A stretch of DNA of 64,000 nt, from positions 2,530-66,529 of the forward strand of contig JAGOVG010000005.1 in assembly GCA_018060845.1 (NCBI GenBank), given 5' to 3'. Below, in pieces: positions 2,957 to 63,103 of the stretch. Made by a program: the position numbers and the translations under genes. Every line of letters begins with the position of its first letter. Positions within the stretch are counted from its first letter, which is position 1. This DNA comes from Candidatus Woesebacteria bacterium (lineage in GTDB: Bacteria > Patescibacteriota > Microgenomatia > UBA1400 > UBA12108). The notes under the pieces were generated by a model. It was not told the DNA's origin. It searched no databases and was given only the letters and a program-made list of their open reading frames with translations.

Positions 2957-4954
2957 TTAAGTCTCAGCGACTACAGACTTAACCGGCAACTTCCATGCCG
3001 CCCACTTACACTCCGGGTACTTCTCGCACCCATAAAACTTGCCCTTCCTGCTCTTCTTTATCACTACTCTCCCACCACACGTAGGACACAGATTCGCTCC
3101 CGCATACTCTACATACTGCGCCTTATAATCACATTCAGGATATCTATTACATGAGAGGAACTTGCCAAACTTACCTGTTCGGATTATGACCTCGCCCTCC
3201 TTACATTTGGGACATTGCTCACCCGTTGACTCGACCTGGACCTTTACCCTTTCACCTTTTTCCTCAACTAGCTTTACTGTCTCATTCATCGGCGTCCAGA
3301 ACGACCTAACCACATCGACCCACTTCTTTTTCCCATCTGCTACCGCATCTAGGTCTGACTCCATCCTGGCGGTAAACTCATACGCCATCACGTTCTCAAA
3401 GTTAGCAGTCAAAAACTCGACAACTGCAATCCCGACTGCAGTCGGGTGGAACCGCTTTTCTTCTTTGGTCACATAACCCCTGTCCTGGATCGTGCTGATA
3501 ATCGCCGCATAGGTGCTAGGCCGGCCGATCCCTCTCTTCTCTAGTTCTTTGATCAGCCCTGCCTCGCTATAGCGAGCAGGTGGCTGGGTAAACTTTTGAG
3601 TTGATTCGACTTTGATTAGCGGTAATACCTCACCGCTTGTTACTTGTGGTAGGAATACATCGTCTGCACTCTTGCCAAGTTTCATATACCCATCAAAGAT
3701 CATTCGCTTACCATCAGCCTTGAGCTCATACATTGTTGCATTGTTGCTCTGTTGCGTTGTTGCACTTACCAATATTGTCGTTTTATCAAATCGAGCATCC
3801 TGCATTTGGCACTGCATAAATCTAGTTCGGATCAGCTCATACAGCTTTTTGTCCCTACCCTCTAGCTCTGGAGATGCACTCACGTTTGTCGGTCTTATCG
3901 CCTCATGAGCTTCTTGGGCGCTCGCAGCCTTAGTTTTATATACCCTCGGAGCAGGTGGTAAATACTCAGCACCAAATGAGCTTAATATGTAGCTCCTAGC
4001 AGCCTCAACCGCTTCTGTCGCTAGATTATATGAGTCTGTTCGGTGGTAAGTAATTAATCCTCGCTCATAGAGTGACTGTGCTATCTGCATAGTCTGCTTG
4101 GCAGAGTATCCAAACATATTAGATCCAGCTCGCTGCAGTAGCGAGGTAGTAAATGGTGGCTGAGGTGAGCTTTTTTGCTCCTCATTACTAACTCCTAATA
4201 CAGTATAGGTCGCCTCTTCTAGGTCTTTTACGACCTTGCCTGCAGTTTCACTATTATTTATTTTCGCGGTTTTACCATCTATCCTTACTAGTTCGACCCT
4301 TAGTTCTCTTTCACCTTGTCCCTTGTCGCTTGTCCCTCCCACTGATCTAAGATCAGTAAAAATCTCCCAATATTCATCCGCAACAAAAGCGTTAATCTCT
4401 TTTTCTTTATCGACGATTAGTCGGACAGATACCGATTGGACACGCCCAGCCGATAACCCTCTCCTCACCTTTTTCCACAGTACCGGCGAGAGTGTGTAGC
4501 CCACGAGCCTATCTAGCACCCGACGTGCCTGCTGCGCATTCACTAGATCCATATTAACCACACCTGGGTGGTTTAATGCTTCAAGTATCGCGGTCTTGGT
4601 GATTTCATGAAATGTTACTCTCTTGAACCTTGTCCCTTGAACCTTGTCCCTACTATCTGACAGCAAATACTGGACATGGTAAGAGATCGCCTCTCCCTCG
4701 CGGTCTGGGTCAGTTGCCAGATAGATGATGTTGGCTTTTTTTGCTAATGCCTTAAGCTCAGACACTCGCTTCTTTTTTGAAGATAGTACCTGATAGTTAG
4801 GCTCAAAGTCATGGTCTACATCAATAGCTAGTCCGCCACCTTTTTCTGGTAGATCACGGATGTGTCCCATCGACGCTTCGATCGCATACTCACGTCCGAG
4901 GAACCTCGATAGTGTCTTAGCTTTGGTGGGTGACTCAACAATTACTAAATCCAT
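2957..4954 (-). CDS. topA: DNA topoisomerase I
   Basis: 665 aa. Toprim N-terminus (VIVESPTKAKTL...HIRDLP). Catalytic Tyr region. C-terminal Zn-ribbon repeats (CPKC...C..C). Confidence 0.9.
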   Translation of the reverse strand: MDLVIVESPTKAKTLSRFLGREYAIEASMGHIRDLPEKGGGLAIDVDHDFEPNYQVLSSKKKRVSELKALAKKANIIYLATDPDREGEAISYHVQYLLSDSRDKVQGTRFKRVTFHEITKTAILEALNHPGVVNMDLVNAQQARRVLDRLVGYTLSPVLWKKVRRGLSAGRVQSVSVRLIVDKEKEINAFVADEYWEIFTDLRSVGGTSDKGQGERELRVELVRIDGKTAKINNSETAGKVVKDLEEATYTVLGVSNEEQKSSPQPPFTTSLLQRAGSNMFGYSAKQTMQIAQSLYERGLITYHRTDSYNLATEAVEAARSYILSSFGAEYLPPAPRVYKTKAASAQEAHEAIRPTNVSASPELEGRDKKLYELIRTRFMQCQMQDARFDKTTILVSATTQQSNNATMYELKADGKRMIFDGYMKLGKSADDVFLPQVTSGEVLPLIKVESTQKFTQPPARYSEAGLIKELEKRGIGRPSTYAAIISTIQDRGYVTKEEKRFHPTAVGIAVVEFLTANFENVMAYEFTARMESDLDAVADGKKKWVDVVRSFWTPMNETVKLVEEKGERVKVQVESTGEQCPKCKEGEVIIRTGKFGKFLSCNRYPECDYKAQYVEYAGANLCPTCGGRVVIKKSRKGKFYGCEKYPECKWAAWKLPVKSVVAET

Positions 4955-4973: not shown

Positions 4974-5522
4974 TTATGCCAGGCGTGTCAACAAATCTGC
5001 TACCACTTCCTCAACTATCTTGCCTACTATTTTCCTCTCATCAGGTCCAAAATCTTGCAGACTATAAACTACTCCTGGTACTCCTTTATTCCCCCTAACT
5101 TCCCTATTCTCTACACCGACTCGCACATTCCAATACAGGTTAGTCCCTAGTGTTTGCTCGACCGACAGCAAACCATTGTGTACCTTAGGCGCTTTGCCAT
5201 GCTGGATCTTATAACTGCCGAGTGGTATATCCAGGTCATCATGAATAATAAAGATGTCCTCACTCTTTATCTTGTAAAAGCGTGAAATTGCAGAGACTGC
5301 TTTGCCACTGTCGTTCATAAAAGTGGTTGGTTTTGCGAGCACATAATCTTTTGTCTGAACAATCTCGGCATCAAATTTGGATTTTAACTGAAAGTTTAAT
5401 TCTTCACTTTCATCTTTAACCTTTAACCTTTTTACTAGTTCGTCGACCACCACAAACCCAATATTATGTCGGTTATTCTTATATTTTTCACCTGGATTGC
5501 CCAGTCCTACAACTAACTTCAT
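4974..5522 (-). CDS. pth: Peptidyl-tRNA hydrolase. Start moved to the internal Met (MKLVVGLGNPG); the track ORF extends upstream into the repeat element.
   Basis: GLGNPGxxY...RHNxG Pth signature. Conserved D/H/N residues. Confidence 0.85.
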   Translation of the reverse strand: MKLVVGLGNPGEKYKNNRHNIGFVVVDELVKRLKVKDESEELNFQLKSKFDAEIVQTKDYVLAKPTTFMNDSGKAVSAISRFYKIKSEDIFIIHDDLDIPLGSYKIQHGKAPKVHNGLLSVEQTLGTNLYWNVRVGVENREVRGNKGVPGVVYSLQDFGPDERKIVGKIVEEVVADLLTRLA

Positions 5523-6790: not shown

Positions 6791-6941
6791 TTGCTTTTAA
6801 TTAAGCTATATATTTACACAATACCCAAAGCACCCCAGACGAGGAGGTGTTTAAAGTTAATGGTATAAATACGAGACTGGCTGTTCATAACTTTTGTAAG
6901 TATCCCAAAAACAGAATTCTCTTGCAATATATCAAAATATA

Positions 6942-7838
6942 TCAGTTTTGCCTGCTAGCCATCCAGTCCACTATTTCACGTAGCGTCGCATCATCCGTCG
7001 CGTCTTTTGCTAGCTCAGCGTGTCTTAGTATTTCAGCTTCCAGTTTTTCCTTCCCATACATCAGGGCAAAGCTATGCTTCCCCTCCCGAGCATCATTCCC
7101 GACGGGCTTACCAGTTTTACTGCTATCCCCCCACTCAGCCAGGTAATCATCACGGAGCTGAAACACCCATCCTAGCTCCATCCCATACTCAGTTAAGTTC
7201 TTTATTAATCCTGGCTTAGCGCCACCCAGTGTTGCTCCAAATACTAGCGGAAGTATGCAGCTGTACTCACCTGATTTGAGGGCCAGGATCTGCAGTAGAC
7301 TCGCTTCATCTGCTACCTGTAGCACATCTAGCATCTGCCCATATCCAACACGAGAAAAGTACTTCCCCCACACGGCCGTTGCATTTGTAATTTGTAAATT
7401 GGTTATTGGTAATTTAAGCGTAGCGAGCGTCTCCATCCCCCAACCAAATGTTAGATCCCCTGCACAGATGGCGAGAGCTTCGCCAGCGTGTCTATCACCA
7501 TACCTCGCATGCACTGTCGACACACCCCGTCGCAGATCATCCCGATCCATAATGTCGTCATGAATAAGGAGTCCTAGGTGAAATAGCTCCATAATTACTG
7601 CAGCTCGCACCACCTCACTCACACCCTCTTTGCTACCCCCAGCGATCTGGTAACCGAGGATAGTCAGTAGTCCGCGCATCCGCTTGCCACCATGCGAAAG
7701 CTCTCTCATGGCATTAACTGCCTTTACTAGTTCAGGTGAAATCTCTTTAACTTCCTCTAACCTCCTACCAAGCTCTGCCTCAATCTCAGTATCAATCAGT
7801 GGTTTCGATTGCTCAATAAAATTAGTTAACACGTTCAT
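6942..7838 (-). CDS. Polyprenyl diphosphate synthase (FPP/GGPP synthase family).
   Basis: Two Asp-rich motifs: LLIHDDIMDRDDLRRG and FQLRDDYLAEWGD. Confidence 0.85.
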   Translation of the reverse strand: MNVLTNFIEQSKPLIDTEIEAELGRRLEEVKEISPELVKAVNAMRELSHGGKRMRGLLTILGYQIAGGSKEGVSEVVRAAVIMELFHLGLLIHDDIMDRDDLRRGVSTVHARYGDRHAGEALAICAGDLTFGWGMETLATLKLPITNLQITNATAVWGKYFSRVGYGQMLDVLQVADEASLLQILALKSGEYSCILPLVFGATLGGAKPGLIKNLTEYGMELGWVFQLRDDYLAEWGDSSKTGKPVGNDAREGKHSFALMYGKEKLEAEILRHAELAKDATDDATLREIVDWMASRQN

Positions 7839-57309: not shown

Positions 57310-58221
57310 ATGACCAACTTTGAGACAACATCCTACACTATCTCCGAAACCGCCGAAAAGCTAGACCTCTCCGAAAAAACTCTGCGAAGGTGGGAAGAAG
57401 CCGGGCGCTTTGCCCCATCACGCACGGTTGGTAATCAGCGTCGTTATACTGTCGAAGACCTCCAAATACTGGACGCTATCAAACACAACATCATCCCCCA
57501 TCAAAAAGATTTATTAAATATAACAGCGGCCGCCCAGTTTTTGGATGTGACCGAACCCACGATAGAGCGCTTAGTTAGCGAGGGCTCTCTCCACCCCTTT
57601 ATCACTGTCACTGGCAGATACTACCCACGCCATCGCCTACTCCCATTCCTCGGAAACCTCAAAGGTGAGTCCCCTATCCCACCCACTATCCCCAGCCTAA
57701 CTCCAACCACAGACCCAGTTCCCGAGCCAGTTAAACAGTTCGTAACTCCACCACTTCCCCCTCAGTCAACTGTAGTCCCACTTTCAAAGAATAATACTCA
57801 ATCCCACCCTTCTTACACTATATATAGTATGCAGGTGGTCATTACTGTCGCCCTCCTCACCGTCTACCATCTCCTCTTCCGTGCTCCCATTACCCCAACT
57901 AGCCCCACTCCAGTTCCTGGCAGTGTCCAGGGTGCGGCAACCAATCCCAGTCTCCTCCTACTCGACGACATGCTAGATAGCACAACTGGTGGTCTAACTG
58001 CCACAACCATTACCTCCAAGCTAGGTACCATCACCCCAAACCTCACCCTGCTGCCCGGGATCTCCCCCACCTCGCCGTTCCCAGGTAGTCTCTACTATGA
58101 TGCGAGTGAAAATGTCCTAAAAATCTACACCACTAACGGCTGGCAAGCAATCACAACTTCTGCCGAACTAAACGCACTTAAATTTGATCTGGAATCAAAG
58201 GTTGCAACTACAAGTAACTAG
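57310..58221 (+). CDS. Membrane protein with two tandem N-terminal MerR/excisionase-type HTH domains, a Pro-rich linker, one TM helix and an extracytoplasmic C-terminal domain
   Basis: Two LxxKTLRRWEExG / LDVTEPTIERLVSEG HTH repeats. TM VVITVALLTVYHLLF. Confidence 0.45.
   Translation: MTNFETTSYTISETAEKLDLSEKTLRRWEEAGRFAPSRTVGNQRRYTVEDLQILDAIKHNIIPHQKDLLNITAAAQFLDVTEPTIERLVSEGSLHPFITVTGRYYPRHRLLPFLGNLKGESPIPPTIPSLTPTTDPVPEPVKQFVTPPLPPQSTVVPLSKNNTQSHPSYTIYSMQVVITVALLTVYHLLFRAPITPTSPTPVPGSVQGAATNPSLLLLDDMLDSTTGGLTATTITSKLGTITPNLTLLPGISPTSPFPGSLYYDASENVLKIYTTNGWQAITTSAELNALKFDLESKVATTSN
58160..58221 (+). repeat. 3'-terminal coding segment of gene 57310..58221 (…AELNALKFDLESKVATTSN*). A diverged copy is duplicated at 59580..59641.
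   Basis: ~60-nt similarity. The differences are mostly synonymous. Confidence 0.6.
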
Positions 58222-58261
58222 CCCATTGACACCCTATAGCATAAGTGTAGAATACACATCT

Positions 58262-59566
58262 GTTATGTCTCAAGTAGCAGAAACAGGGGTAAGCAAAGCC
58301 ATTAGAAGCGCAGGCGACCTGTTTTGGAGCGTACCATCCTCGATCGCCACTTACTATGCGCTAGGTGTCAGCATGCTGACCGAAATTACCCAGGTAGCTA
58401 CCACACAAAGAACATCACAGCTCAGCCCTGCTTCTGATTTTTATACGACAGAGTATATAGAGGTCCTCCAAGATAGCTATGAGCCTTACAGGATACTAGA
58501 GAATGTTATTCCACAATCAGACAACTATTTCACACCAGGCGAACTAGGATTCATCCTCGCTGGCATGCACCTATTCTCTCGCAATCTAAATTTTGACGAC
58601 CCAAGTGGATTTACTAATCCATTATCAAGACTCTCTGCAAATCTAGAGGAAAAACAGGCTAAGCTCTCTAGCATTTTTGACAATGCACTAGAAAATCACC
58701 CGTTTATCAGAGCTACCCTACACCAGCTCTCGCGGTCACTAGAATACTCTACGGTCATACTAGACCCACTACTCCCATCAGCTGCCAAGTTATTAGTGCT
58801 GGGTATCGCAACGGAGGCATATATCGACAACCCAGCTATCTACAGCGCACTGCTACTAGTGTCTACTGTCGGAACCATTATCACTATCAACGATATTATC
58901 AGGATTACAGGCAAATCATTAGATGCTCTCCAAAAATTCGGTTTCCAAATAACCGCTGATGAGCCAATTACAAATAGTAGCACATCTACCATAAATATGG
59001 CCAAGAGTTCCTCAAAACCGGGATCTAATAGAACAAAATCCGCTCAATCGGCGAGCCATTATGCGCCAATTATGAGTGCTCACCCTGACGCAAGTTCACT
59101 GGGCGGACTAGGTATTGATCCAAATCAGGCCTTATTACACCAGATGTCTCCAAAAGGCAACAGAAAATCAGTCGATGTGGGTTCCTTTAGTATTGTTGTG
59201 GAATCTGAGGTCGATACTCATTTGGGGTTGGTTGGACCACAATCAGAATCTGCGGCACGCAATCTAGCCGCTGAGCTCAGAAGTAAAGGTGTAAAAGTTG
59301 CCGTAGTAGATACAGATAATTCCATTGGCAGATTAGGATCTAAGACTGAAGGTGGCGCTGTAGTTATTGCTTTCACTAGAAATCCTAGTCCAGTCGAACC
59401 TAGCAATGAACACTATGATCGAGAAAAACCTCAATTAGGTGCTACTGTTATTACTTTCAAAGCCGTAGACGATACAACCATTGTAGCGAACGATATCCTA
59501 ACAGGTAAACCGTTCACTGGAATTATTGGCAAGAAGAAACCTCCATCGCCAAAACTTCTAAAATAG
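58262..59566 (+). CDS. Hypothetical protein (start at MSQVAETG), flanked by the duplicated 3' tail of the upstream gene
   Basis: ORF in a different frame from the upstream gene. Confidence 0.4.
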   Translation, partial: VMSQVAETGVSKAIRSAGDLFWSVPSSIATYYALGVSMLTEITQVATTQRTSQLSPASDFYTTEYIEVLQDSYEPYRILENVIPQSDNYFTPGELGFILAGMHLFSRNLNFDDPSGFTNPLSRLSANLEEKQAKLSSIFDNALENHPFIRATLHQLSRSLEYSTVILDPLLPSAAKLLVLGIATEAYIDNPAIYSALLLVSTVGTIITINDIIRITGKSLDALQKFGFQITADEPITNSSTSTINMAKSSSKPGSNRTKSAQSASHYAPIMSAHPDASSLGGLGIDPNQALLHQMSPKGNRKSVDVGSFSIVVESEVDTHLGLVGPQSESAARNLAAELRSKGVKVAVVDTDNSIGRLGSKTEGGAVVIAFTRNPSPVEPSNEHYDREKPQLGATVITFKAVDDTTIVANDILTGKPFTGIIGKKKPPSPKLLK

Positions 59567-59579
59567 CCAAATATAGCCA

Positions 59580-59641
59580 CTAGAACTAAATGCACTCAAA
59601 TTTGATCTGGAATCAAAGGTTGCTACAAATACTAGCAACTA
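59580..59641 (+). repeat. Orphan second copy of the upstream gene's C-terminal tail (encodes ELNALKFDLESKVATNTSN*)
   Basis: Alignment to 58160..58221. Confidence 0.6.
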
Positions 59642-59931
59642 ACTAATTACCCTCTTTTGTGTGTCCCGGGCCATACTTAATCTCTCCGCCATTCGCAATA
59701 AGAGTCCTAGACCCTATCGTTCCTTCGGGACTAATTTTAGGCGCGAATATTTCACAAAGAAAATTCGGTAATCCCAAAAACACTAAAGTTTTGTAAATCC
59801 ACATACTTTCTGGTTCAACTGCATTTGTCATGATTATCCTTTAGCAAAAGAATTATATATTTGTGCGTACCATTTACACACAAAAAGCTATTTTACACCT
59901 CTCTCACAACTTGTCAACAACATTGCAAAAT

Positions 59932-60387
59932 CTATTTAAACAACTCAGCCTTACCCTTTACTGCCTTATCAATCGCATCTAACATACTCCCCGAGTCTCT
60001 GGGAGATTGCCAGATCACATTGCTAATGGCTCCAGCCAATTCTTGAATATTTCCTGCACGCACATGGCGGTAATTTTTCAATACTATCTTACTAGCGAGA
60101 GTGTCAGCGTCTTTCTTAACAGTTTCAAATACCTTTTTGTACTCACCCTCAGATCTTACTAAGAGATGTACCGCGTTAGCACTAGACAGATATAATAATA
60201 AGAGAGCATTTTCATCATGGTTCAGATTAAAACCATCTGTATCAGCCACCATCATTAAGATTGTTGAGATGTTGCCAACCCAACCAAACGCGTCTACTTC
60301 ATCTGTAGGTATACTCCTAACCGAATCAACGTATGCCTGCCCTAAGACAGTTGCTAGCGCCAACACACCCTCAATATTTATGCTCAT
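59932..60387 (-). CDS. Hypothetical protein (151 aa)
   Basis: ORF only. Confidence 0.3.
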   Translation of the reverse strand: MSINIEGVLALATVLGQAYVDSVRSIPTDEVDAFGWVGNISTILMMVADTDGFNLNHDENALLLLYLSSANAVHLLVRSEGEYKKVFETVKKDADTLASKIVLKNYRHVRAGNIQELAGAISNVIWQSPRDSGSMLDAIDKAVKGKAELFK

Positions 60388-60479
60388 TTTGTATCATTCT
60401 CCATATTGACATAGTATAAGAGAGGTGTATTATATCCTATATTATTAGTAAATACACATTAAATATATAAGGATAAAAT

Positions 60480-61052
60480 ATGTACTTCGCACCCGCTGTA
60501 AAAGAACAAGCAAGCTATCACGAAATAAATACATCAGATCAGAGCGTAGATTCATTCGCTAGTGTTGCACTACTGCTTCCCTTGTTTAACGAGAGGCTCA
60601 AAAATTTTGATCTAAATGATGTTTTAACATGGGCTGCAGGTATTACAACAGGATTAATAGTTATTTATCTAGCATCAGCGGTCAAAGAAAATAACGAAGA
60701 ACCTAGGCGTAAAGGCCAAAGTCTAGATGAATTTTCCTTAGATACAATGGAGCCAGGAAAAAGAAGGCATAGCATGGAAACCAAACTTAACACAAAACTT
60801 AAAAATAATGCAGATCAATTAACGGACAGTGAAAAAGAATACATAGCTAACTTAAGACCTGATCAAATATCAAAACATCTGAAACATCTCATATCCCACG
60901 CAGTCGAACTCGAAAGCATAATGAGGTCTAATGATATTCACAATGGATTCAACCCAAATATGGACTCACGCAGAAATCAAGCATTCAATAATTATAGAGG
61001 CACAACGACCCAAATCAAAAAGGCTATCCAGCCATCACGCTTTAAGAAATAA
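60480..61052 (+). CDS. Hypothetical protein with one TM helix
   Basis: ORF only. Confidence 0.3.
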   Translation: MYFAPAVKEQASYHEINTSDQSVDSFASVALLLPLFNERLKNFDLNDVLTWAAGITTGLIVIYLASAVKENNEEPRRKGQSLDEFSLDTMEPGKRRHSMETKLNTKLKNNADQLTDSEKEYIANLRPDQISKHLKHLISHAVELESIMRSNDIHNGFNPNMDSRRNQAFNNYRGTTTQIKKAIQPSRFKK

Positions 61053-61107
61053 TAGACAGAGTACTATTATGTTACTTTAGTTCTCTACTTAAGCTATAAT
61101 TGTAAGG

Positions 61108-62520
61108 ATGAAAAAGCACGACCACATCTACCGCCCCCTCGTCTTCTTTGCGACCATCCTCTTTGTCCTCGTCGGCACCTACTTTGTCATCCGCTACGCC
61201 AAGGGTGATCGCCTAGGCCAGACTGGCGTCGTCAAAGGGACCGGCCTCCTCTCTGCCAACAGCTTCCCGACCAGTGCTCAGGTCTATATCGACGGCAGGT
61301 TAACCACAGCTACCGACAATACCCTCAACCTCGATCCAGGTACCTACAAAATCGAGATCAAAAAAGACGGCTACCACACCTGGTCAAAGAGTGTCGCTAT
61401 AGCTGCTGAGTTAGTAACCCCCACTAACGCCCAGCTCTTTCCCACTAGCCCGACCTTGGAGCCACTGACTTATACTGGCGCCGAGAACCCGACCCCCAGC
61501 GCCGATGGTAACGCTCTAGCTTTTACTGTTGCCTCCGCTTCTGCTAGCACCAAAAACGGACTATATGTCCAGGATCTCAGTAGCAGCCCAATCAGCCTCA
61601 ACAAAAATGCGCGTCAGATCGCCCAGAATACGAGCGAGCACAACTATAGCCGCTCAAAGTTTGTCTTCTCGCCCAACAGCAGCGAGATCTTGGTCTCCTT
61701 TGATTCTGGTGCACACCTCCTCCTTGATGCTAGTCGCTTTAACAACCCTCAGGATCTCCAGGATGTGACCTGGAACCTCAGCTCTATCCTCAATGATTGG
61801 GAACTAGAGATGGCGCGCACCGAGCGAGTGAGGCTACTCGAGCTCCCTATCTTCTTTCAGGAGATCGCAACCGAGAGCGGCAAGCTAACTAACCTCTACT
61901 TCTCCCCCGACGGCAAAAAGCTCCTCTACCAGGCGCTCCAAGAGATCGAGATCCCAATCGGGTTGATCCCTCCACTACCTGCCACAAGTAGTCAGGTAGA
62001 GTCCAGGAAAATCTCTCCCGGTAACTGGTATATTTATGACATTGTCGAAGACAAAAACTTTGCCATTGCCAGTGGAACTATTGCAACACCGAGTCCAACC
62101 CCAACCCCCAAAAATAACAAAAAAATAACTACTCCTCAGACACCTGTCGCCGCGATCTCCAAACTCATGTTGCTAGACAATCTCTCCCCAATCCCCGCCG
62201 AGACTACTAGTAGTCCCAGTGCCTACCGCAAGCTCCAGGACAATGTATCTCGCGAAACTACACTCGCCCTCATCTCCGCCCAATACTCCTCGATCTACAT
62301 CGACTCTGTCCAGTGGTATCCTGACTCCGCTCACCTCATCCTCCACTCAGATAACAAAATCGAGATCGTCGAATATGACGCCACCAACAAAGTAACACTC
62401 TACGATGGACCCTTTGATAGTAGTATCGTCTACCCTTGGCCAGACGGAAGTAAAATAATTACAAGAATTGGTTTTTCAGAAGGGACCGTGCCTAATTTAT
62501 ATACAATTAAACTAAAATAG
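61108..62520 (+). CDS. Membrane-anchored PEGA-domain protein with a probable beta-propeller (TolB-like) C-terminal region
   Basis: N-terminal TM. PEGA-like segment (VYIDGRLTTATDNTLNLDPGTYKIEIKKDGYHTW). Confidence 0.5.
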   Translation: MKKHDHIYRPLVFFATILFVLVGTYFVIRYAKGDRLGQTGVVKGTGLLSANSFPTSAQVYIDGRLTTATDNTLNLDPGTYKIEIKKDGYHTWSKSVAIAAELVTPTNAQLFPTSPTLEPLTYTGAENPTPSADGNALAFTVASASASTKNGLYVQDLSSSPISLNKNARQIAQNTSEHNYSRSKFVFSPNSSEILVSFDSGAHLLLDASRFNNPQDLQDVTWNLSSILNDWELEMARTERVRLLELPIFFQEIATESGKLTNLYFSPDGKKLLYQALQEIEIPIGLIPPLPATSSQVESRKISPGNWYIYDIVEDKNFAIASGTIATPSPTPTPKNNKKITTPQTPVAAISKLMLLDNLSPIPAETTSSPSAYRKLQDNVSRETTLALISAQYSSIYIDSVQWYPDSAHLILHSDNKIEIVEYDATNKVTLYDGPFDSSIVYPWPDGSKIITRIGFSEGTVPNLYTIKLK

Positions 62521-62527
62521 TATCACC

Positions 62528-62562
62528 CCTGCCCGCAATGCTACGCATAGCGTTGCAGGCGG
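62528..62562. repeat. Family R2 small hairpin repeat, copy B (cctgcccgcaatgctacgcatagcgttgcaggcgg). It sits between two copies of the PEGA gene's 3' tail.
   Basis: Alignment. Confidence 0.5.
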
Positions 62563-62570
62563 ACGCATCC

Positions 62571-62620
62571 AGTTCTCCGAAGGCACCATTCCTAATCTGT
62601 ATACTATCAAGTTAAAATAA
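62571..62620 (+). repeat. Diverged duplicate of the PEGA gene's last 16 codons (QFSEGTIPNLYTIKLK*, versus GFSEGTVPNLYTIKLK* at 62472..62520)
   Basis: Peptide near-identity with ~9 synonymous DNA differences. Confidence 0.55.
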
Positions 62621-62642
62621 CCTAACGTCCCGGTAGTTCAAC

Positions 62643-62677
62643 GGATAGCCCAGCTGCTCGCGAGCGGCTGGGTCCTA
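62643..62677. repeat. 35-bp direct repeat DR-left (ggatagcccagctgctcgcgagcggctgggtccta). It contains the near-perfect 22-bp palindrome CCAGCTGCTCGCGAGCGGCTGG and is preceded by a tRNA D-arm-like segment.
   Basis: Identical 35-mer at 63024..63058. Confidence 0.6.
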
Positions 62678-62684
62678 AACCTAT

Positions 62685-62930
62685 ATGTATTACGTCTATA
62701 TCATTCAAGATGAAAAGAACAAGCTATATGTCGGCTACTCATCAAACTTGCGTCAAAGATTCAAAGCACATCTTCTAGGCAGCACGCATACCACTGCAAA
62801 TTTTTTAAAGCCCAGACTAATATACTACGAAGCATACGAATCTGAGCAGCTTGCTAGGGATAGGGAAACAAAACTAAAACAGTATGGCTCAAGTTATACA
62901 GGACTTCTCAAGCGACTTGGGTTAAAATAG
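62685..62930 (+). CDS. Small GIY-YIG nuclease-domain protein (81 aa)
   Basis: YVYIIQDEKNKLYVGYSSNLRQRFKAH is a GIY-YIG motif with the conserved Arg. Confidence 0.6.
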   Translation: MYYVYIIQDEKNKLYVGYSSNLRQRFKAHLLGSTHTTANFLKPRLIYYEAYESEQLARDRETKLKQYGSSYTGLLKRLGLK

Positions 62931-62938
62931 ACTCAATA

Positions 62939-63010
62939 GCTCCCATAGTTTAACGGATAGAACAGAGGTTTCCTAAACCTCTAATCCAAGTTCAATTCTT
63001 GGTGGGGGCA
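62939..63010 (+). tRNA. tRNA-Arg (anticodon CCT)
   Basis: Acceptor gctccca/tgggggc (one G-U). Anticodon stem gaggt/acctc with loop uuCCUaa. T-arm ccaag-TTCAATT-cttgg. Confidence 0.75.
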
Positions 63011-63023
63011 CAATATTTTCAAT

Positions 63024-63058
63024 GGATAGCCCAGCTGCTCGCGAGCGGCTGGGTCCTA
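63024..63058. repeat. 35-bp direct repeat DR-right, identical to 62643..62677. It is followed by a second, related palindromic hairpin (ccagctcttcgcgaagggctgg).
   Basis: Exact repeat. The second hairpin has compensatory C-G to T-A changes. Confidence 0.6.
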
Positions 63059-63103
63059 TCCAGCTCTTCGCGAAGGGCTGGACAATTCCCGGTCGGGACA
63101 CCA

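Follow-up and report, generated by a model that had tools for sequence, protein, structure and literature searches.

A 64,000-nt stretch from a "Candidatus Woesebacteria" bacterium (contig JAGOVG010000005.1 of assembly GCA_018060845.1, positions 2,530 to 66,529, forward strand; here called the window, to which all coordinates below without a locus number refer) contains a gene for a PEGA-domain protein whose last codons are present twice, with a 36-nt hairpin repeat, R2, lying within the second occurrence. We consider it probable that this arrangement is the scar of two successive events, the in-frame insertion of R2 near the end of the gene and the later addition, ahead of the hairpin, of a hairpin-free tail of foreign appearance that subsequently spread. 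Read in this way, the locus offers an example, represented in three genomes, of a hairpin that entered a gene in frame, was translated for a long time and was then bypassed by a borrowed tail of 66 nt. The evidence base for the whole analysis consists of metagenome assemblies, in which comparison loci are numbered with the prefix L. The parts of the locus are as follows.

61108..62520, + strand: PEGA-domain gene of 470 aa in its current frame, including the replacement tail (list of open reading frames [ORFs]; Pfam PF08308).
62456..62520, + strand: F1, the apparent replacement tail, (K)IITRIGFSEGTVPNLYTIKLK plus TAG, with foreign-looking codon usage (GC content at third codon positions [GC3], drop in orthologue identity, three-genome comparison); its left boundary is approximate, 62452-62458.
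62521, + strand: abrupt transition from F1 to the old tail, with a single base T (sequence; likewise in L131 and L135, as TAG T GTCACC).
62522..62527, + strand: proximal 6 nt of the old tail, ATC ACC (Ile-Thr), to the left of the hairpin (orthologue match).
62528..62563, + strand: R2 hairpin unit of 36 nt, lying within the old tail and read in its frame as PARNATHSVAGG (copy search, RNA fold, 126-copy alignment).
62564..62620, + strand: copy 2, the old tail RIQFSEGTIPNLYTIKLK plus TAA, now an untranslated remnant (identity to L001, residues of relatives, three-genome changes).

The repeated gene end

The product of 61108..62520 ends in RIGFSEGTVPNLYTIKLK (62464-62520), and a second tail, RIQFSEGTIPNLYTIKLK, likewise closed by a stop codon, follows 3' of the PEGA stop at 62564-62620. 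A preliminary description of this DNA had reported that the last 16 codons of the gene recur 58 nt downstream. The recurrence is real, but codon-by-codon alignment extends it to 18 codons plus the stop, and the gap is shorter, with 49 nt separating the first stop from the Q codon of the second tail and 43 nt separating it from the R codon. Between the two tails, residues are identical at 16 of 18 positions and bases at 39 of 57. Of the base differences, 13 belong to 11 synonymous codon pairs (the stop counted) and 5 to two replacement pairs (G/Q and V/I). A repeat search returned the same region as a direct repeat of 47 nt (62473-62519 and 62573-62619, 77% identity, 100 nt from start to start). 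The longest run identical between the tail copies is 9 nt. When the window was shuffled 20 times, the 18-residue peptide was matched at best at 7-9 of its 18 residues, never at more than 9, and the duplication is therefore far above chance. Copy 2 stands in a different frame from the PEGA ORF and lacks a start codon, and a TAA in its own frame lies ahead of it at 62513; it therefore forms no ORF at present.

To judge from comparison with relatives, the downstream copy is the former tail of the PEGA gene, and F1, upstream, is a foreign-looking replacement. Copy 2 is identical at 55 of 57 positions (96%) to the functional tail of L001, the nearest relative, its residues RIQFSEGTIPNLYTIKLK are the terminal residues of all of the closest PEGA homologues, and the adjoining 3' part of the PEGA body is 95% identical to L001, which together identify copy 2 as the old tail. 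More widely, 487 homologues of the protein were found, and PNLYTIKLK is the C terminus in nearly all of the 120 listed. The identity of F1 to every orthologue is only 0.62-0.68. Its GC3 is 0.18-0.21, versus 0.60-0.63 in the PEGA body and a window median of 0.46, and is among the lowest 1.3% of 22-codon windows. The pair is not a duplication made in place: F1 and copy 2 are 68% identical, versus 96% for copy 2 and the tail of L001, and we read an old tail and a foreign-looking replacement instead.

The position of the hairpin had also to be revised. It had been placed at 62528-62562, between the copies; the unit spans 62528-62563, as its boundaries in 126 copies with unrelated flanks show, and lies within the displaced old tail, so that it is no spacer separating two equal copies. 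The codons ATC ACC at 62522-62527 match the homologous codons in L001, L125, and L128, and when read in their frame, 62522-62620 gives I T PARNATHSVAGG RIQFSEGTIPNLYTIKLK and a stop. With ATC ACC to the left of R2 and RIQFSEGTIPNLYTIKLK to its right, R2 is therefore an in-frame insertion of 12 codons within the old tail, located between a Thr codon and an Arg codon, 18 codons before the stop. F1 with its stop ends 7 nt upstream of the hairpin.

The PEGA body (61108-62455) is itself a recombination mosaic, with tracts that are near either L003 or L001: codons 1-40 are 97-98% identical to L003 and 63-85% to L001, and codons 400-440 are 95% identical to L001 and 77-88% to L003.

Three genomes and the order of events

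The whole F1-R2-copy 2 layout is also present in L131 (ERZ3602260) and L135 (SRR25018341), which come from other samples, and reads F1-TAG-T-(A/G)TCACC-R2-old tail in all three genomes. A short-read contig, L124 (SRR11088367), carries F1-TAG-TATCACC-R2 and breaks inside R2; no other contig joining R2 to a PEGA tail was matched in the metagenome collection. The break in L124, at position 4447, falls halfway through R2, and contigs that carry homologues of the GIY-YIG nuclease gene described below are in many cases shorter than 3 kb. Such repeats evidently break assemblies, which probably leaves loci of this kind under-represented in metagenome bins.

Third positions of the PEGA body differ by 24-25% between any two of the window, L131, and L135. 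Among the same genomes, the old tail has accumulated 6 synonymous and 0 replacement changes (P = 1.4e-4, or 3e-3 when only transitions are counted), its third positions showing 26-32% differences between L135 and the other two, with copy 2 being 9% diverged in L135. The R2 copies occupy the identical site in the three genomes and are 7-9% diverged. F1, for its part, shows 0-1 differences in 66 nt (P = 0.002-0.017), and over the block 62456-62684 the window and L131 differ at 8 of 229 positions, against 23-24% at third positions of the flanking ORFs (P = 5e-18). The PEGA body contains 90-nt tracts of 98.9% identity, and short tracts of recent recombination are common there. These changes bear out the earlier suggestion that both copies derive from translated sequence: copy 2, whose decay in relatives would have spoken for a simple remnant, has not decayed in any of the three genomes.

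The simplest reading of these differences is that the R2-bearing tail was translated through most of the divergence of the three lineages, that F1 is young, and that F1 passed among the lineages through homologous recombination, which is frequent in the PEGA gene. The sequences support an order of events in which the hairpin came before the patch, because the old tail has changed only synonymously, at about the silent-site rate, while F1 remained nearly invariant.

The R2 hairpin element

The window contains two copies of R2, against an expectation of 0. The copy at 62528 has a predicted RNA fold of -21.7 kcal/mol on the + strand (z = -3.4), and the other lies in a second protein-coding gene:

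21714..21749, + strand: R2 copy in frame in the formyltransferase ORF 21606..22589, as PARNASHSDAGG (Pfam PF00551 for the ORF).

In this Fmt-like protein, PARNASHSDAGG is added following codon 36, at a site that we take to be the loop bearing PAGRGKK in E. coli Fmt.

A scan for the 30-nt core of R2 in one genome per species yielded at least 120 stretches (loci L004-L123), whose hosts include many classes of Patescibacteria as well as Verrucomicrobiota, Lentisphaerae, Kiritimatiellia, Gammaproteobacteria, and Bdellovibrionales and thus represent at least five phyla. Over 126 aligned copies, the unit is exactly 36 nt long (CCT, the core, and GGG) with unrelated flanks, its inner base pair covaries (T-A, A-T, or G-C), and no target-site duplication surrounds it. 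In 55 of the 126 copies, R2 lies in a long ORF, on the sense strand and in the single frame PARNAxHSxAGG, though four of its six frames are open; 48 copies lie outside long ORFs. Residue segments of this 12-aa type, as well as short "pseudo-tails," should be annotated with caution, as they are footprints of the element and not features of the genes. Only one match was found among 2.9 million viral contigs, so phages are not an obvious vector of R2. Searches of Rfam matched only tRNA and no family covering R2 or the palindromes h1 and h2 described below, and a role of R2 as an intrinsic terminator was rejected, as no T-run stands behind the hairpin.

A small GIY-YIG ORF is present in 11 of the 120 R2 loci listed, and in 8 of these 11, R2 lies within 40 nt of that ORF, typically 16-20 nt upstream of its ATG. 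In L080 (~5392-5454) and L064 (~6860-6921 and 7157-7218), R2 stands 16-17 nt upstream of GIY-YIG ORFs of 78 aa; the hairpin-ORF unit of L064 is in tandem duplicate, and the R2 of L080 appears to split a putative 5' tRNA fragment (GCGCGGTTA-[R2]-GGCTCAGTTG).

R2 was also seen near the start of a gene read as that for ribosomal protein S9, before ...(Y)WEAVGRRKTST, in L005 (~1072-1107, - strand) and L032 (~3721-3756, + strand). The hosts are one Saccharibacteria and one Nomurabacteria genome, and the two copies differ in their inner-pair variants. Occupation of the same position in two hosts points to transfer from one orthologous site to another or else to a strong preference for this site.

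Similar scars in other genomes

Both flanks of every R2 copy were compared at the DNA and protein levels, and hairpin-bearing remnants of the kind seen at the PEGA gene recur at other loci. In L030, a dnaK-like start fragment, MSKVLGIDLGTTNS, with an internal R2 lies 28 nt upstream of the intact gene, whose own start differs from the fragment at many silent sites. In L033, MLDINFIR-[R2]-EN precedes the intact MLDINFIREN gene by 20 nt, and in L103 and L117, R2 lies inside 5' tRNA fragments that adjoin an intact tRNA. With the window, such remnants hold 5 of the 48 R2 copies found outside long ORFs. The short side of the remnant, from R2 to the junction, measures 6-11 nt in each of these five independent cases, for which we estimate, from the remnant lengths, a P of ~0.003 under random placement within remnants. 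With respect to the + orientation of R2, the junction is 5' in the window and 3' in L030, L033, and L117; overall, junctions with foreign DNA lie 6-15 nt from hairpins, and the side is not constant.

The preliminary description had inferred a recurrent process that acts at gene 3' ends in association with small palindromes. Its recurrence is corroborated by the R2 remnants in L030, L033, L103, and L117 and by the tRNA-Arg of the window, but the process is not specific to 3' ends, as 5' ends and tRNA genes are affected as well. The companion case that had been cited as evidence for hairpins, a MerR-like gene at 58160/59580, lends no support on that point. The tail of this gene is duplicated (58165-58221 and 59583-59642) around a 433-codon ORF, but there is no R-type hairpin by eye over 59400-59900, none in the hairpin scan of the window, and no R2 copy. 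It is a related scar, that of a cargo insertion at a gene tail, and shows that tail remnants also arise without hairpins. The bracketed ORF has no Pfam match and is situated inside a low-GC island (58222-61100, GC content of 0.35-0.45 versus ~0.5 in the flanks). In L003, L125, and L127, little or nothing separates the MerR-like gene from the PEGA gene, and among relatives, the region between the two genes is variable.

The adjoining tRNA-Arg and GIY-YIG cassette

Downstream of copy 2, the window continues with a separate composite element.

62627..62682, + strand: 5' part of tRNA-Arg(CCT), in which a 24-nt palindrome, h1 (62649-62672), replaces the 5' strand of the anticodon stem (compared with the intact tRNA in L001 and L135).
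62685..62930, + strand: single-domain GIY-YIG gene, 81 aa, a neighboring element apart from the tail duplication (Pfam PF01541, E = 2e-15).
62939..63011, + strand: intact tRNA-Arg(CCT) belonging to a second sequence type, immediately 3' of the GIY-YIG gene (ARAGORN; Rfam tRNA, 62.5 bits).
63018..63100, + strand: second remnant of the first tRNA type, comprising a D-loop piece, h1 (63030-63053), TCCTA, a related palindrome h2 (63059-63082), and the 3' end (repeat, folds, tRNA of L001).

The first type of tRNA-Arg(CCT) is intact in L001 and L003 and, as far as the contig reaches, in L135. In the window, it is distributed over a 5' part with h1, for which ARAGORN made no tRNA call (62627..62682), and the h1/h2 remnant, with the GIY-YIG gene and the intact tRNA of the second type in between, the latter being the resident tRNA of L125/L126. 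A direct repeat of 41 nt spans both h1 copies (62637-62677 and 63018-63058, 98% identical). The palindrome h1 lies 12 nt upstream of the GIY-YIG ATG, and h1 plus h2 follow the adjacent tRNA. In the pieces of the old tRNA, 24-nt palindromes stand in place of anticodon-stem and T-arm sequence. Palindromes of 24 nt upstream of GIY-YIG genes were also seen in L132 (2466-2489) and L133 (2457-2480 and 2849-2872); together with h1 and h2 of the window, they vary by paired, stem-preserving changes around a TCGCGA center (TCACGA in one copy), and a T-G mismatch occupies one and the same stem position in h1 and h2.

The product of 62685..62930 matches PF01541 over residues 1-67 and has no other domain, which places it among single-domain proteins of ~80-100 aa. 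Matches to NCBIfam were all below threshold, and the best PDB match, the UPF0213 protein 1zg2, is weak (E = 0.03). The 123 homologues are mostly 79-90 aa long and share a conserved KRLGLK end, and one protein, P0121, is identical, although looking up the exact product returned no record. The conservation of KRLGLK throughout the family, including at other loci, led us to reject the notion that its GLK-stop end is a captured PEGA tail.

The cassette, which adjoins the duplication in L131 as it does in the window, is independent of the tail event, because L135 has the duplication, F1-R2-copy 2, followed by an undisrupted tRNA-Arg without h1 up to the end of the contig in the anticodon arm; this layout led us to reject the GIY-YIG insertion as the cause of the tail duplication. 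An identical PEGA protein occurs with the GIY-YIG insertion in L127 and without it in L125 and L126, and the tRNA fragment with its h1 leader is nearly invariant in L127 too. Compared with L125 (3274-3283) and L126 (4437-4446), the insert in L127 (3795-4115) is bounded by a 9-nt repeat, GTTAAAATA, which is common to the end of the PEGA gene and the end of the GIY-YIG gene. The architecture recurs at a tRNA-Arg in L132 (2430-2830) and at a tRNA-Trp in L133 (2446-3100). The former has an identical flanking repeat of 40 nt, and the order in the latter is 5' tRNA fragment, 24-nt palindrome, anticodon-loop piece, GIY-YIG gene, intact tRNA, and more hairpin remnants. Apparently, such small nuclease genes reside in tRNA genes and either carry in or preserve a functional copy of the tRNA.

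The locus between the PEGA gene and ndk is variable among relatives. In L003, the tRNA-Arg(CCT) directly after the PEGA stop (4793-4865) lies on the opposite strand, a further sign of a rearrangement-prone junction. In a more distant relative, L128, a Y1 transposase gene of the IS200/IS605 type (PF01797, 5639-6343) lies just beyond ndk, and no link to R2 was seen.

A probable two-step history and its alternatives

In the history that we favor, R2 would have entered the PEGA gene in frame, 18 codons before the stop, and translation would have continued through the hairpin, as it does in dozens of other genes that contain R2. More recently, a 66-nt piece with a hairpin-free tail and a stop, from a relative of lower GC content, would have been joined 7 nt upstream of R2. 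Translation would since have ended before R2, leaving the old tail as an untranslated fossil, and homologous recombination would have distributed the patched allele among three or more lineages. As for the joining, we infer that the most likely route began with breakage next to the hairpin or with strand exchange being blocked there. On the gene-body side, pairing with homeologous DNA from a relative would allow the tail of the incoming molecule to be copied. On the hairpin side, where just 6-11 nt precede a heterology of 36 nt, pairing would fail, and the end would be joined nonhomologously. Where a hairpin had entered the interior of a gene, homologous repair from both sides would be traceless, which could explain why scars are seen at gene ends. 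The abruptness of the junction, its closeness to the hairpin, and its constant position on the side of the gene body fit a break or stalled exchange.

The binding sites of Ssn nucleases are hairpin repeats in single-stranded DNA, and cleavage falls a few nucleotides upstream (PMC11893778). By analogy, an Ssn-like enzyme that cuts single strands at hairpins could produce such a break, or it could shorten incoming DNA close to the ends of genes. We extend this tentatively to a broader proposal, which we hold to be possible though doubtful, that R2-type hairpins are mobile, coding-compatible cognate sites of 36 nt for Ssn-like GIY-YIG nucleases across Patescibacteria and several other phyla, and that, once they have landed in gene ends or tRNAs, nuclease cuts or blocked strand exchange next to them force a one-sided repair from homeologous DNA acquired from relatives, which creates "bypass patches." If this is true, such patches, each a new gene end accompanied by a fossil that the hairpin tags, could sweep across species boundaries, as F1 appears to have done.

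Several observations weigh against this history or its proposed mechanism. An allele with R2 and without F1, predicted to encode 482 aa, was seen neither among the 120 of 487 homologues listed nor among cluster members. No donor of F1 emerged: its exact terminal 30-mer (the last 9 codons plus stop) had no match in metagenome contigs, and the tail RIGFSEGTV was absent from the 120 of 487 homologues listed except for the window's own cluster. The near-invariance of F1 and of the block 62456-62684 could reflect selection on the DNA instead of recent spread. There is no nuclease gene adjacent to R2 in the window, and the published SRM search sequence of the Ssn system, HGTCWYN(0-2)YYVSBRHN(0-5)WNVSBRGN(0-2)RNCYNB, has 0 matches on either strand of the window, including R2, h1, and h2 and their flanks. 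Because the side of R2 on which the junction lies is not constant, strand-specific cutting upstream of the hairpin leaves some cases unexplained. Finally, R2 interrupts the dnaK-like start in L030 out of frame; such an allele would hardly be viable alone, and insertion of the hairpin first therefore cannot be the whole story everywhere.

The last point is more easily accommodated if redundancy came first, that is, if the integration of foreign DNA by a one-sided event, homologous on the side anchored in the PEGA gene and illegitimate on the other, created the two tails and R2 later landed in the dispensable old one. An out-of-frame R2 as in L030 would be easier to acquire in an already dispensable fragment, and a hairpin-free tail remnant does exist at the MerR-like gene (58165-58221 and 59583-59642). 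We nevertheless regard this order as unlikely for the PEGA gene: copy 2 evolved as a coding sequence (6 synonymous and 0 replacement changes) while F1 hardly changed, R2 occupies the identical site in three genomes with 7-9% divergence among its copies, its distance from the junction is 6-11 nt in five independent cases (P of ~0.003 if random), and remnants are a tiny target yet hold 5 of the 48 non-ORF copies.

A second alternative, to which we give still less credence, is that the arrangement is old and functional, with copy 2 still translated (for example, through a +1 shift at AAA TAG T) or with the whole block selected as a nucleic acid element, such as a homology arm for the neighboring mobile cassette. 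The 8 differences in 229 positions over 62456-62684, set against 23-24% at flanking third positions (P = 5e-18), would follow naturally, as would the purely synonymous changes in copy 2 and the near-invariance of the tRNA fragment and h1 leader in L127. Translation, however, would have to contend with the missing start codon and the in-frame TAA at 62513, our reading of the sequence revealed neither a Shine-Dalgarno-like stimulator nor a known slippery site, and the product would bear its C-terminal motif twice; ribosomal bypass or a +1 frameshift into copy 2 was dropped for its want of known signals and its odd product. Selection on the block is opposed by the 90-nt tracts of 98.9% identity in the PEGA body, where short recent recombination is common, and by L135, in which copy 2 is 9% diverged and F1 is not.

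Attachment-site duplication by an integrase-type element that supplied a substitute gene end and has since been lost would account for silent differences between the two ends, since integrative elements targeting 3' ends, such as phage 21 and e14 in icd, carry replacement ends of this kind. It is very improbable here, as the first stop is followed by copy 2 after 43 nt, 36 of which are R2, no integrase domain was found in the nine neighboring ORFs scanned, there is no long identical core (the longest run being 9 nt), and the short arrangement is kept in three genomes. Plain tandem duplication with divergence, or an assembly artifact from two strain variants, is scarcely credible despite the 100-nt direct-repeat spacing and the one short-read contig that breaks inside R2, given that copy 2 is 96% identical to its orthologue and 68% to F1, that F1 would need 18 changes against 2 in copy 2, and that the junctions are identical in three assemblies from different samples. 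A diversity-generating retroelement was rejected, the differences being of all kinds, mostly at third positions and not adenine specific, and no reverse transcriptase domain was found in the neighbors.

Comparison with known systems

The probable two-step scar at the PEGA gene shares traits with several known systems. In elements that provide substitute gene ends, such as phage 21 and e14 in E. coli icd and islands in tRNA genes, an integrase acts at an identical core, and kilobases separate the two copies. As with those elements, there are two versions of the gene end, the one in use stems from incoming DNA, and the differences are mostly silent, but at the PEGA gene no integrase was found, there is no core, and the copies are 43 nt apart. 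For the neighboring GIY-YIG element, the Seg proteins of phage T4 come to mind, which are multidomain proteins of ~200 aa or more that cut double-stranded DNA. SegB is described as a free-standing GIY-YIG homing endonuclease in a tRNA gene cluster of T4 (PMC2330249). The location of a GIY-YIG gene among or within tRNA genes, its polymorphic presence or absence, and the cotransfer of flanks are features in common; the proteins here have 81 aa and the catalytic domain only, and the comparison concerns the neighboring element.

In Neisseria, dRS3 repeats and minimal mobile elements mark cassette exchange by transformation, and neighboring genes are more diverse. The PEGA-ndk locus varies similarly, although the Neisseria repeats are intergenic and their exchanges are clean, without duplicated gene ends. 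(The dRS3 repeats are summarized in PMC11893778.) Repetitive extragenic palindromes and their associated tyrosine transposases (REP/RAYT) differ in that no Y1_Tnp domain was found in the nine neighboring ORFs and R2 is often intragenic. Closer in one respect are the Rickettsia palindromic elements (RPEs), reportedly described by Ogata et al. in 2000, which are said to be dispersed, to lie in frame in genes and to be translated, and to measure ~100-150 bp and be confined to Rickettsia. R2 resembles them in lying in frame in protein-coding genes (the formyltransferase gene; 55 of 126 copies) and differs in being exactly 36 nt long and occurring in several phyla. We know of no replacement-tail scars described for RPEs.

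The nearest parallel in architecture is the Ssn/SRM pairing. Neisseria Ssn is a protein of 94 aa, whose genes are flanked by hairpins of 20-50 nt that are also dispersed in the genome, and Ssn nucleases alter the integration of transforming DNA (PMC11893778, Chenal et al. 2025). The likeness extends to a small single-domain GIY-YIG protein (81 aa here versus 94 aa in Neisseria), to oriented hairpins that flank the nuclease gene and recur in the genome (h1 and h2; R2 in 8 of 11 loci), and, by analogy, to a proposed role in recombination with incoming DNA, the junctions here lying 6-15 nt from hairpins. The main text of PMC11893778 is silent on tRNA genes, remnants of gene ends, and Patescibacteria, and our literature search turned up nothing on R2, on hairpins lying in frame in Patescibacteria, or on gene-end remnants tagged by hairpins. 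By analogy, then, R2 is like the Ssn/SRM pairing in architecture and like RPEs in its in-frame translation, with a sequence unlike the SRM and a size and host range unlike those of RPEs.

Pairings of hairpin repeats with tiny GIY-YIG nucleases were recognized only in 2025, and this locus provides a three-genome example of what such a hairpin probably does to a gene. R2 with its flanks provides concrete substrates for tests of nuclease specificity. The scars in unrelated genomes suggest a general route by which hairpins and DNA uptake remodel conserved gene ends in ultrasmall bacteria.

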